Part shown: positions 581-61,052 of the stretch, piece after piece
Position numbering within the stretch: position 1 is the first letter of the stretch
Layout: each line of letters opens with the position of its first letter
Assembly (NCBI GenBank): GCA_964016885.1
Contig: OZ024740.1
Coordinates: 296,794,001 to 296,858,000, forward strand
Origin: Eledone cirrhosa
Taxonomy: Eukaryota
DNA: 64,000 bases
Direction: 5' to 3'
Position numbers and translations under genes: made by a program
The notes under the pieces: model-generated
Databases searched by the model: none
Told to the model about the DNA's origin: nothing
The model's input: the letters and a program-made list of their open reading frames with translations, nothing else

Positions 581-711
581 TGTAATAAAAGACGGGTTAA
601 AGCGATCAATAATGTATCTGTGTATATATATATATATATATATATATATATATATATATATATATATATATATATAATAAATAACAAAGAACGCCTATAG
701 CATATGCATAT

Positions 712-769
712 CTTTACTTGCTAACATTGTTTCATCCGCACTATAAGTGGGACTCATCAGAGCATAAAG
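712..769 (-). ncRNA. Minimal type I hammerhead ribozyme (3' pLTR)
   Basis: Minus strand reads CUUUAUGCU-CUGAUGA-GUCCCACuuauaGUGcGGAU-GAAA-CaauG-UU-AGCAagUAAAG. Stems I and II pair and stem III is near-palindromic. Confidence 0.88.
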
Positions 770-2897
770 GTTAATTACATACCATACAAGCAATAACAAA
801 TCCAAGACATTGAAGAATGAAAAATAATAATAGACGATAAAGGATATTAAGGAAGTAAAAGTAAAAGTAAAGATAAGAATAAAAATAAAAATAAAAATAA
901 AAATAAGATAATAAAATAAACAATGAAAAATAAAAAAATGAAAAATAAGGGGTGCTATCAGTCACAGTTGGGCTGGGTGCTGTCAACATATAGTTACATA
1001 CAAGCATACACATGGATAAGAGAACAGACAAGAGTAGATGAGATAGATAGGATTAGGTAAGAGTAGGTAAAAAATAGGTGAAAAACAGACTTATAATATA
1101 TATAAGAAAATATAAAGAAATACATAACAAACTTACATATAAACTATAAAATATACAGATAATAGTGATACAGGGTAAGGAATGAGATAAAATAATATAA
1201 AATTAAAATTAAAATTATATAAAATAGAACATAATATAATATAATCATAAAATAAGATAAAATAAGGTAAACTAAAATAAAATAAAATAGACTAAATTAA
1301 AATAATATAATATAAGATATAATTAAATGTAATTAAATAAATAAATAAATAAATAAATAAAGTTAAATAAATAAATAAAATTAAAATTAAAAGTAAAATT
1401 AAATTTAAATAAATAAATAAATAAATAAGTAAATAAATAAGTAAATAAATAAATAAATAAATAAATAAATAAATAAATGGAATTAAATAAGTAAATAAAT
1501 AAAATTAGATAACATGAAATGAAATAAAATAAAATAAAATGAAATAAAGTAAATTGAGATAAGATATATATTTTTTTAGAATATATCTCCTGAATATATC
1601 AGGGGCCCACGAAGGCACTAATTGTCACAGTTATGTGTATCACTTGACCATTGCAAGGCAATGGAGGCGTCCCAGGTTGGGCAGTCTCAAAAGTTCACTC
1701 GAAAGTCGCGGGTGTGCATTCACACAGTTGAGCGGTGGGGTAATCACAAACCGGTTCACACCCGGGCAGGAGTCCAATGGTCAGAGAGAGGTGCATCGAA
1801 GGAAGGTAGGAGAATTCACGTGCATTAGCAAGCGAGGTGCAGGCGGGTTAGCCAAAGCAAGCAGACACTGTTGGAGCGCATACAAAAGATATATAAAAAG
1901 ACAGAAGATATATAAAAAATAGCTTCAAGAGCCATTAAGTCACCGCATTGGGACATCACAAGATTGTACACATCAATATGTTCAGCACGTATATGCACAT
2001 ATACACACCACATGCATATGCAGAGACGGTATACATATATATATATATTTTTTTTTATATACAGACATATACAACCACCTACACCCATACACATATAAAT
2101 GTATACACGGACACACACGCACACACACACAGCGTAGGACACCCGGGTCAAAGCTGATATTAAACACCGAAATACCACATTAGGCCAGACCCACCACCAC
2201 GGATAATACATTCAAAATAAATACATACGATGAGATGTAGTAAAATAAAGTTGAAATCCTACGGAGATAATCATGTCCGCACGTGCCATTGCCCGATTCA
2301 AGTGTACACAGACCGTTAGTAACTACGGAGGGCTATCGGGGCCAAAACGTTACTTTCGGGATCATAACAACGACCGTCAATATATGGAAGGCCGATCGTG
2401 CTAGAAAGACTACAACCCCGGGCAAGAGCTCCCAGAAGTCAGCCTGTAGATCTTAAACCACAGAATATGAGGGCAACACGTACATGCGCCACGTATCCAC
2501 TGCTTACGGCGGGATGGCACAGGTCCGCCCACAGTTACAGGCTAAATTTCTATTAGTGCAGCCTAAATCACAGTACACGCTTTACATAAATACATTACAT
2601 CACAACTCATGCGCATACAGAGGTACAGATCCACAAGATATACGTCAGGATAGACCCACCAATGCACCAATGGTGGGTAGGCGAGCGTGGATGGGTTACA
2701 TCCGCTGTGCCAAACAGGGGTGCTTATTAACATACACCCCCACTCACCTGTACACCCCAATATCCAGATCAATATCCTCCCACAGGCATACGTATACATT
2801 CACCGACTCATATACATAGACGACCAACAATAGGAGACAGTTACACACAATCAGAGACAGTTACACAAGACAGCCCAACTGGAGGAATAAGGAAGTG

Positions 2898-59179: not shown

Positions 59180-59820
59180 ATATATATATATATATTACCG
59201 TCATTACTGATACAAGATTACAAGATTATGTCAACTGTTGACTTTCAAGAGTTCGTATAGTTGAAACCGTTCGTGTTACAGTTCAGTATTATTATAATTG
59301 CTTTACAGTTGACTTTGCCTTTCATCCTTACGGGGTCGATAAAATAAAGTACCAGTAATGCACTGGGTAATTGCTGGCCTTGTGCCTAAAGTAGAAACAA
59401 TTATAATTGCTTTACAGCATCGAGCTATGGCTCTCCACGCTCTGAGCTCAAATCCCGCCGAGGTCAACCTTGCCTTTCATCCCCACGGAGTCAACTAAAG
59501 AGAGCACCAGTAATGCGCAAAAGCAGAAAAATTATTATTATTAAAGTTGTTGTTTTCTTAAGGCCCGGTCGCTGGTGGTGGTGATGGTTGTAGCAGTTGA
59601 TGTTGTTGTTGTGTTGTGTGCGTGTGTGTGTTTTGTTATTTTGAGTGTTTTTTTTGTTGTTGTTTTTTATCGTAAGATGCCGCTGTTGTTGTAAATGTTC
59701 ATTTCAATTCATTCTGAAGCTGTTGTTGCTGTAAACATTAGTGCCGGTGTTGTTGTAGATGTTGGGGTTGAAATCTGGTTGTTTGACTTAGTGATGTATA
59801 TACACACACACACACACACA
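59180..59820 (-). repeat. Diverged inverted copy of part of the array unit (equivalent to ~8210-8735)
   Basis: TATTACCGTCATTACTGATACAAGATT... and GGCCCGGTCGCTGGTGGTG... are reverse complements of unit sequence. Confidence 0.9.
59309..59399 (+). mobile_element. 5'-truncated SINE with an 18-bp target-site duplication
   Basis: ATTATAATTGCTTTACAG at 59291-59308 and 59400-59417 flanks the SINE 3' half. Confidence 0.85.
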
Positions 59821-60814
59821 TATATATATATATATATATATATATATATATATATATATATATATATATATATATGTAAGTATGTATGTATACGTACATA
59901 CATATATGTATACAGACGTACAGTAGCATGCATATATATATATATATATATATATACATACATACAGGTACACATACATATATGCACGCATCAGTTTAGC
60001 GGACGCTTATTATAACGCCGCTTTGTTCGTTTGTCAACAAACTGAACAGCCTGAATTTATACCATACGGTGTTAAGGCAACCACGTCACCTTTTTGTTCA
60101 ACACTGACACAGGAACGATGTACTAGTTTCAAGCTTGTTAGCTATCATCAGCACCGTTTACCCATCTGCCAGATAGTTGAACGTTCGAAAGTATATACTT
60201 TCCTTATGAAAATTAACGGCTGAGCAGCCTAATTTGCATATTGAGTGAGTTAAATCGGTCAGGCATACCGAAAACGATAAGTTGAAAAAAAAATGAAAGT
60301 AAGTGCCATACTAAGAGTGAGAAATGAAATTTCGTTTTCATTTTTTTTTCAACTGGATTATTATTGTAGAAGTATACACGTCGTAGGGATTTTTGTTCCC
60401 GTAAGTTTGCGATTTGTGTACAGTTCAATTGCAAACGTATCTTTAAAAAATTATATTGTTTTGTTTCTAAACACACCCCACTTCTCTTGAAGTGGTCGAA
60501 ATTAATTGTTATTTAGCCTTCCTGGGCGAAATTCCAATTTGAACTTTGCATTTAGCAAATACGCCCCCCAAGAAAAATGGCGTCATTCAAAAAACCCATC
60601 TCTCTGCCATGTATACACTGCTGTCGTCGTCGTCGTCGTTCTTTCGGTGGCTGTCGCTGTTCGGTGGTTACCGTTCTGTTGTTTCGATTCATTGATATGC
60701 TCTGGGCTGGATTTTGGTGTTGCTTTCTCAAGGCACCGATGAGGTCATAGCTGTTGCATAACAGTTATCACTTATTATATATATATATATATATATATAT
60801 ATATATATATATAT

Positions 60815-61052
60815 ATAGAATAGCTTTCACTGTATTTTTGACTAAAGAAATTTTAGCCTGATAATGGGGTTTAGAACCTCAGATAAATGGAAGAAGATGA
60901 GTATTGACGTACATGGGAGTCAATACTCATCTTTTTCCATTTATCTGAGGGTTCTAAACCCCATTATCAGGCTAAAATTTCTTTAGTCAAAAATACGGTG
61001 AAAGCTATTCTATTTTCTAATTTCAAACCTGCTCACTGTTTCAAAACATACT
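60815..61052. repeat. ~95-bp-arm palindrome plus ~40-bp tail inserted in (TA)n
   Basis: AGAATAGCTTTCAC...GAGTATTGAC pairs with GTCAATACTC...GTGAAAGCTATTCT, with a ~10-nt spacer near 60909-60918. Confidence 0.9.

Follow-up and report, generated by a model that had tools for sequence, protein, structure and literature searches.

Five inverted repeats in a 64,000-nt stretch of the Eledone cirrhosa genome (3.0 Gb), lying at positions 296794001-296858000 of contig C1 (OZ024740.1) and hereafter called the window, are almost certainly derived from Penelope-like elements (PLEs), and in each of them a 3' extension, or tail, is carried by one of the two arms only. The palindromes are called E1 to E5, and families 1 to 5 are named after them (Table 1). 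The pairing of a tailed with a tail-less arm recurs in nearly all the copies scored in the genome, and is probably the outcome of two cDNAs primed at two known reverse transcriptase (RT) start sites, on opposite strands of the target, and joined head to head. All five insertions had been picked out in a sequence-only reading of the window, and were all found again; as claimed there, they are unrelated, the best alignment between their terminal regions having E=0.56. The arms match at 1746 of 1750/1762 nt in E1, 58/60 in E2, 148/152 in E4 and 92 of 94/95 in E5, and are 96-97% alike in E3, the range over all five elements being 96-99.8%. All five are flanked by (TA)n, the right side of E3 by (TC)n followed by (TA)n, and flanks of this type would mask any target-site duplication. 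Wherever a hammerhead or a parent element sets the sense strand, the 3' ends of both arms point outward, as also proposed at first. The same reading had one arm running further in four cases. The extension is real, and found in five elements out of five, E3 included (88 nt in E1, 78 in E2, ~61 in E4, ~39 in E5, and ~112 nt, in unit phase, in E3); the pairing of one tail per palindrome was absent from that account.

The tail at one end is a feature of all five families. The genome was searched with tail-free symmetric patterns, used to avoid tail bias, and reversed controls gave 0 matches. Exact matches number 13,469 for family 2, 1,655 for family 4 and 377 for family 5, and are lower bounds on the mini-palindromes. 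The first 50 matches listed on contig C1 were scored for families 2 and 5, and 48 for family 4, two local duplicates being omitted. Two 3' ends, one proximal and one distal, recur in each family at TA-like microhomologies; in family 5 the proximal one is loose. Exactly one arm is tailed in 50/50 copies of family 2 (48 by script, two by inspection), in 46/48 copies of family 4 (one has both tails, one neither), and in 45/50 copies of family 5 (43 by motif, two by inspection; three have both tails, two neither). Independent choice of the ends would yield one-tail pairing in at most about half of the copies. Family-2 palindromes apparently bearing both tails were reclassified on inspection, two being neighbouring insertions and two having non-TA flanks. 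Families 1 and 3 were sampled with tail-containing queries, and are thus ascertained on the distal end. For family 1, 34 of 40 ~10-kb regions around tail-bearing matches were scored; they contain 22 inversions, and in 22/22 the other arm ends at the proximal site. In family 3, 19/22 inversions follow the one-tail rule (26 distinct insertions).

Arms of families 1, 2 and 4 match the 3' ends of elements encoding RT with a GIY-YIG domain at the C-terminus, which bears out the origin from autonomous PLEs supposed at first. The E1 open reading frame (ORF) features RWR, DKT, CxCx5C, CxxC and CxH motifs, recognised by eye, and lacks CCHH, as in the definition of the Hydra clade (PMC8557442, section 11; here and below PMC8557442, PMC3846280, PMC11167929, PMC7229834, PMC4209133 and 10.64898/2026.07.22.740005 are cited for excerpts of their text). 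Pieces of this ORF gave no relevant match in Pfam, and a PDB sequence search gave no match; 15 relatives of 678-838 aa were found for the E1 protein. E1 also has its pseudo-long terminal repeat (pLTR) as a partial tandem, with the upstream pLTR present, and three hammerheads. In family 2, a Hydra-type GIY-YIG is located upstream in one long copy, and a second copy overlaps the stop region; in the one copy in which the linker was seen its third C is changed, CxxC and CxH are present, and the family is assigned from the endonuclease (EN) portion. The parent of family 4 scores 25.9 bits for GIY-YIG (cut-off 22.6) and 29.4 for RVT_1 (cut-off 29.6), and its RT plus GIY-YIG ORF is contiguous with the 3' end in three long copies. 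The linker preceding GIY-YIG reads Cx4CxxC, a form of the CX2-5CxxC of Neptune, and would not by itself set Nematis apart. Families 1 and 2 appear to be Hydra-type and family 4 Neptune-type, the clades being read from motifs.

Families 3 and 5 are non-coding. A tandem unit of 531 bp, with a type I hammerhead of long stem II, makes up family 3; its circular fold is predicted to be stable (z -5.8 vs 25 rough shuffles), and the family looks retrozyme-like by its sequence. Family 5 is a 261-bp tandem unit with a tRNA-like gene, detected by ARAGORN in 2/4 loci and by Rfam, above gathering, in all 3 family-5 loci (6 loci scanned). Set beside a tRNA-derived short interspersed element, with a tRNA head at a fixed 5' end and a 3' end derived from a long interspersed element (LINE), the unit does have a tRNA, but is found as multimers in inverted arrangement, and the majority of copies have no tRNA. 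Family 5 resembles a retrozyme in insertion anatomy and is not classed as one, no hammerhead having been found in it; no LINE or PLE partner was found for it either. The anatomy would therefore be common to no fewer than two PLE clades and to two non-coding passengers, and the idea of a single PLE machinery, put forward in the sequence-only reading, is unsupported: Hydra-type and Neptune-type proteins both occur, and families 3 and 5 have no partner found. Two further features of the 261-bp unit were observed: the tRNA lies between two ~20-nt sequences predicted to pair in a circle or multimer (z -2.6 vs rough shuffles), and a T5 run, the expected stop for RNA polymerase III, is found close behind it.

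The inner ends of the arms separate long from short families. In families 1 and 3 the two arms end independently: in the 22 family-1 inversions the tail-less arm is longer by at least 100 nt in 7, the tail-bearing arm is longer in 12, and the two are within 50 nt in 3. A sharp inner boundary could not be placed for family 1, the pLTR being low-complexity. In the short families the centres shift by few bases, yet come up against a wall. For family 2 this lies at about -61 to -65, within the hammerhead stem II loop; the longer gap bin holds 3,033 matches, and of the 50 listed some 2 go past it, 10 having central A/T runs of at least 6 (by eye). A/T homopolymers at these centres adjoin a TTT of the parent, and would be expected if RT stutters on terminal U's at the template 5' end, as they suggest. 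Position -152/-153 is reached by 34/48 family-4 palindromes, one being scored further; 1,655 palindromes of this family have gaps of 95-125 against 149 with gaps of 126-156, and among 50 listed of the latter only 2 enter upstream parent sequence (by eye), the others having a duplication or an insertion at the junction. In the parent, the family-4 boundary is the base corresponding to window position 54060, 30 nt downstream of the start of a TATAAAA, and un-inverted stubs of the family begin at the same base. An extra, cap-templated base at family-4 junctions was seen in few cases only, and is not claimed. The wall of family 5 coincides with the tRNA T-stem: 31/50 copies extend as far as position 63-64, and only 4/50 end at 62 or less, a stop at the T-stem being as likely as one at m1A58. 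Centres of this family are often loop-less self-complementary 4-mers (CATG in 15, GTAC in 4, ACGT in 2 of 50, exact matches). A single fixed family-5 centre, taken as a sign of a master palindrome or of a precise stop at tRNA A58, had been selected by the query, and was gone with the unbiased pattern.

[quoted passage not shown] Copy number is high, outer ends are fixed, a modal junction exists in families 4 and 5, and an internal promoter would allow re-transcription of short copies. The MITE-like look remarked on at first is borne out. Family 2, however, has 45 distinct centres in 50 copies, the tail may lie on either side of the modal family-4 junction, ends are asymmetric, with no terminal inverted repeats around a fixed interior, long copies show the arms running on into PLE ORFs, and un-inverted stubs have the same ends. 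The spread of finished units is therefore improbable. The earlier expectation that the inversion is formed anew at each insertion agrees with the centres, which mostly differ; inversion points on a shared 3' end do vary as anticipated, but in short palindromes they do so against a fixed inner boundary.

Fold-back artefacts of sequencing or assembly have practically no chance of accounting for the palindromes. Among the sequences shown, no read or contig spans a whole window junction; the same asymmetric ends are nevertheless found at thousands of loci, arms differ by 0.2-4%, paralogous sites are empty, and short reads from other studies display the same ends and other centres. At the family-4 boundary depth rises from 260,000 to 940,000 and from 302 to 3,628 in two contig sets, possibly the assembly's own source, and from 268 to 903 and from 358 to 807 in two restriction-site-associated DNA sequencing (RAD-seq) runs of another study, RAD depth not being copy number. 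TA-flanked loose ends at this boundary are found in the RAD reads.

A purified PLE protein, from a different PLE, cuts and extends both target strands in vitro, and begins reverse transcription at two internal sites bracketing the tail (PMC11167929). By analogy, the enzyme of each element would cut both strands of the (TA)n site and start a cDNA on each, at the distal tail end on one strand and at the proximal tail end on the other, with the template usually the same RNA or source. Joining of the cDNA 3' ends would follow, at 0-4-nt microhomologies or with small duplications. Retroviral strong-stop DNA is cDNA that runs off at the RNA 5' end close to the primer; in a similar manner, priming near an RNA 5' end or an RT block would make both cDNAs stop together and leave a near-perfect mini-palindrome. 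The stop would be the pLTR promoter start in family 4 and probably in family 2, and an RT block at the tRNA T-arm in family 5. The start is less sure in family 2, because its TATA-like word lacks conservation. Where templates are long or multimeric, as in families 1 and 3, the two cDNAs would stop independently, and hammerheads would travel along as passengers, the RNA copied being uncleaved.

For Penelope elements of Adineta, it has been proposed that head-to-head junctions with palindromes arise by self-priming on antisense RNA, the product of a pLTR promoter working in both directions (PMC3846280, Discussion). This route is superfluous where sense RNA serves for the priming of both strands (PMC11167929); it predicts neither one-tail pairing nor arms that stop 30 nt downstream of a sense-strand TATA, and is judged very improbable here.

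Snap-back of a single cDNA deserves closer weighing: primed at the tail end, the cDNA would stop, fold upon itself, use its arm as template and, by a TA-like microhomology located at the tail boundary, pass over to the other target end. Near-symmetric centres, short microhomologies and small duplications fit it, and arms are mostly identical. Three subfamily markers of family 4 are discordant between arms in 0/47, 5/47 and 5/43 palindromes, against 20, 22 and 18.5 expected, and family-2 markers in 0/39, and in 3/42 against 22.5 expected. Private variants of family 4 lie on both arms in 7 cases, a point for snap-back, vs 58 on a single arm. Exit points of the short arm vary in family 5, and one short arm of family 4 is truncated from outside, as snap-back would allow. 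It cannot, in turn, give a tail-less arm longer than the tailed one, as in E1 (by 3.3 kb) and in 7/22 family-1 inversions, nor arms of different subfamilies: arms of family 4 differ at a two-base marker in 4/47, beyond what fold-back of one molecule can produce. Loop-less self-complementary centres, too, fit annealing of two ends better. An arm-specific C/T difference in family 4, seen at first in 6/10, vanished in the unbiased sample (0/47). Snap-back is thus unlikely as the general route, and may explain part of the short class, family 5 foremost. Of the two routes offered by the sequence-only reading, twin priming is supported, and simple snap-back fails for the 7/22 inversions.

Several points weigh against joined twin cDNAs stopping at RNA 5' ends. 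Palindromes with both tails or none make up 2/48 in family 4 and 5/50 in family 5. Discordant arms could be the product of later gene conversion, concordant arms could reflect subfamily age or inter-arm conversion, and in short palindromes the sequence left by a join between two cDNAs is almost that left by a single one folded back. The in vitro data are bulk data, in which start sites do not differ between strands in the excerpt cited (PMC11167929), and families 3 and 5 have no protein partner found. An RNA 5' end at the boundary is deduced from sequence: the TATA match is post hoc, TATAAAA occurring 6x in 1,500 nt of untranslated region (UTR), or ~2% by chance; the TATA-like word of family 2 varies between subfamilies and overlaps stem II of the hammerhead; the internal promoter of D. 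virilis Penelope is devoid of a TATA (PMC2377424). Both boundaries fall at AG after a pyrimidine-containing stretch, so that a roadblock, by a protein or by structure, is possible. The wider picture is drawn with reserve, and is less likely to be right than wrong: a two-primer machine with a different fixed RT start for each strand, whose mini-palindromes would be fossil strong-stop cDNAs mapping RNA 5' ends and RT blocks to the nucleotide, and which would carry non-coding multimeric RNAs as well, including a 261-nt, hammerhead-less, PLE-dependent tRNA parasite possibly using host tRNA processing.

Hammerheads are less general than tails. A type I descriptor gave 8 matches in the window, vs 0.37 per shuffled window: E1 accounts for three of them, E4 and a neighbouring PLE for two each, and the last is solitary. 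Complete type I motifs are restricted to 2/5 window elements, namely E1, and E4 with one per arm and a U3-A8 core. E2 carries half a hammerhead, the core residing upstream of the fold point in the family-2 parent, and parents of families 2 and 4 bear U3-A8 hammerheads. The family-3 motif is intact in 35/51 tallied copies, and each window copy is altered in core or stem. The descriptor found no hammerhead in E5, nor was there any Rfam ribozyme in three family-5 parent loci. Rfam gave no hammerhead in the five elements among 150 of 168 matches listed; its output consists mainly of sub-threshold microRNA (miRNA) matches to microsatellites, and E4 scores as mir-4679, under the gathering cut-off. 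The insertions had been described as mostly hammerhead-bearing, which holds in complete form for E1 and E4, E3 having mutated motifs, and as a ribozyme claim is unsupported for E2 and E5.

Table 1. Features of the five inverted insertions (positions in the window)
Feature	Position	Strand	Remarks
E1 tail-less arm	676..5785	-	near full-length Hydra-type PLE
E1 long-arm parts	partial pLTR 5785-5545; tail 5544-5457; ORF in three frames ~5388-2901; 3' UTR to proximal end 676	-	
E1 left 3' end, type I hammerhead	719..760	-	descriptor
E1 upstream pLTR, type I hammerhead	5598..5639	-	descriptor
E1 tail-bearing arm	5789..7550	+	inverted, 5'-truncated copy of 3' 1.76 kb
E1 right 3' end, type I hammerhead	7462..7503	+	descriptor
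E1 tail (88 nt)	7551..7638	+	identical sequence to 5544-5457 ahead of ORF
E2 tail-less arm	30829..30888	-	family 2, Hydra-type PLE 3' end
E2 tail-bearing arm	30889..30948	+	only 3' half of hammerhead: GAAA, stem III, cut site
E2 tail (78 nt)	30949..31026	+	
E3 left arm	51820..53087	-	2.4 tandem 531-bp hammerhead units; proximal end at unit position ~408
E3 right arm	53082..53775	+	1.3 units; distal end at unit position ~520; last ~112 nt equivalent to tail
E3 right arm, mutated long-stem-II hammerhead	~53525-53606	+	
(TC)n run between E3 and (TA)n	53776..53801	+	not part of family-3 unit
E4 tail-less arm	53895..54046	-	family 4, Neptune-type PLE 3' end; U3-A8 hammerhead 53971-54004
E4 junction	54047..54059	.	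arm end duplicated over short stretch
E4 tail-bearing arm	54060..54211	+	begins at family-4 hard inner boundary; hammerhead 54102-54135
E4 tail (~61 nt)	54212..54272	+	
E5 short arm	60815..60908	-	family 5, 261-bp tRNA-bearing tandem unit
E5 loop	60909..60918	-	tRNA T-arm 3' strand, antisense; minority junction type within family 5
E5 long arm	60919..61052	+	~39-nt extension reaching family-5 fixed distal end

Variation was also observed at outer ends. Distal ends of family 3 have an added (CT)n of 10-65 nt in 19/27 tallied ends, vs 4-5 nt in the unit; the gain of (CT)n/(TC)n is likely due to slippage, a reiterative, telomerase-like copying at priming. One family-4 palindrome is bordered by (GAT)n at one end and by (TA)n at the opposite end, a hint that part of the flanking (TA)n may be added during insertion. 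Palindromes of the same or different families are often inserted in one another's (TA)n flanks, and form clusters.

Other repeats are found in the window. A ~3.3-kb tandem array (~7640-34000) is made up by about eight units with SINE-like (short interspersed element) and non-LTR RT fragments. E1 and E2 interrupt one and the same (TA)n of this unit, which is empty in 6/8 window copies; being carried by two array units, the two insertions are younger than the array. A second Hydra-type PLE, on the minus strand at 54296-59174, has direct pLTRs, a fragmented ORF and two hammerheads (54340-54374 and 59114-59148); it has (TA)n in common with the E4 flank. E3, E4 and this PLE abut. Its 3' UTR contains a 141-nt piece of the family-3 unit (55062-55202), possibly the result of a template switch between passenger and PLE RNA. 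A further Hydra-type 3' fragment, with GIY-YIG end and UTR, resides on the plus strand at 48131-49184 and terminates in (TA)n, and the solitary hammerhead, a well-formed type I motif, on the minus strand at 60114-60151. Two minisatellites, of 50 bp (35740-36354) and 52 bp (36613-37535), complete the picture; the former has repeated CTGATGA words and no hammerhead match by descriptor.

The basic architecture described here is already known, and what is new are the counts, of one-tail pairing and of a fixed inner boundary. In twin priming of L1, two primers from one cut are used, and the products joined at microhomology; L1 inversions contain different, non-overlapping parts of the RNA, whereas here both cDNAs would copy one and the same RNA portion, beginning at two fixed internal sites. 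For PLE insertions, 5'-truncated copies in inverted position, a tail borne by one of the inverted pLTRs, palindromes at junctions, a putative pLTR TATA and microsatellite targets have been reported (PMC3846280, PMC8557442). Units of EN+ PLEs share with the present ones head-to-head pLTRs, an optional one-sided tail and junction palindromes; their tails are of 30-40 nt, those found here of 39-112 nt, and neither one-tail pairing counted as a near-rule nor a mass class of ORF-less mini-palindromes with a fixed inner point figures in the excerpts of these two papers, in which the mechanism is left open or antisense self-priming proposed (PMC3846280, PMC8557442). The formation of tandem and inverted PLE structures has been named an open question (PMC8557442). 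A literature search gave no statement of a one-tail rule, of a run-off boundary or of a tRNA-bearing PLE passenger, most subscription papers and the supplements of PMC8557442 and PMC11167929 being outside its scope.

The rule and the boundary lead to specific predictions for the in vitro PLE assay (PMC11167929) and for 5'-end mapping. More than 18,000 short palindromes with exact arms (families 2, 4 and 5, both gap ranges where run) are prone to be misfiled as MITEs or miRNA-like hairpins, and insertion anatomy provides a sequence-independent signature for non-coding PLE passengers such as families 3 and 5.

Poseidon PAc in vitro has tail-bracketing RT starts, cuts and extends both strands, copies an uncleaved RNA template and has AT-rich targets, as proposed here; it belongs to a different clade, and in the excerpt cited inverted products are not analysed, nor start sites tied to strands per molecule (PMC11167929). 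Hydra-clade PLEs feature RWK-like, DKT, CxCx5C, CxxC and CxH motifs, no CCHH, a hammerhead and (TA)n targets, as do families 1 and 2 (PMC8557442, section 11), and E1, with a 3' UTR of more than 2 kb, exceeds their usual size of less than 3 kb (PMC8557442). Dual minimal hammerheads, 100-700 bp apart on opposite strands and with the U3-A8 core of family 4, exist in Schistosoma, where they are mentioned in passing, without end or junction analysis in the excerpt cited (PMC4209133). Non-LTR retrozymes, the PLE ancestry of which has already been described, are, like family 3, tandem ORF-less units with a type I hammerhead and a proposed dependence on PLEs; animal circles measure ~170-400 nt, vs 531 bp for the family-3 unit (PMC7229834; 10.64898/2026.07.22.740005). 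Family 5 shares the insertion anatomy of retrozymes, but has a tRNA instead, no hammerhead being found, and in family 3 dependence on PLEs is read from insertion anatomy, that is from two fixed ends and one-tail inversions.

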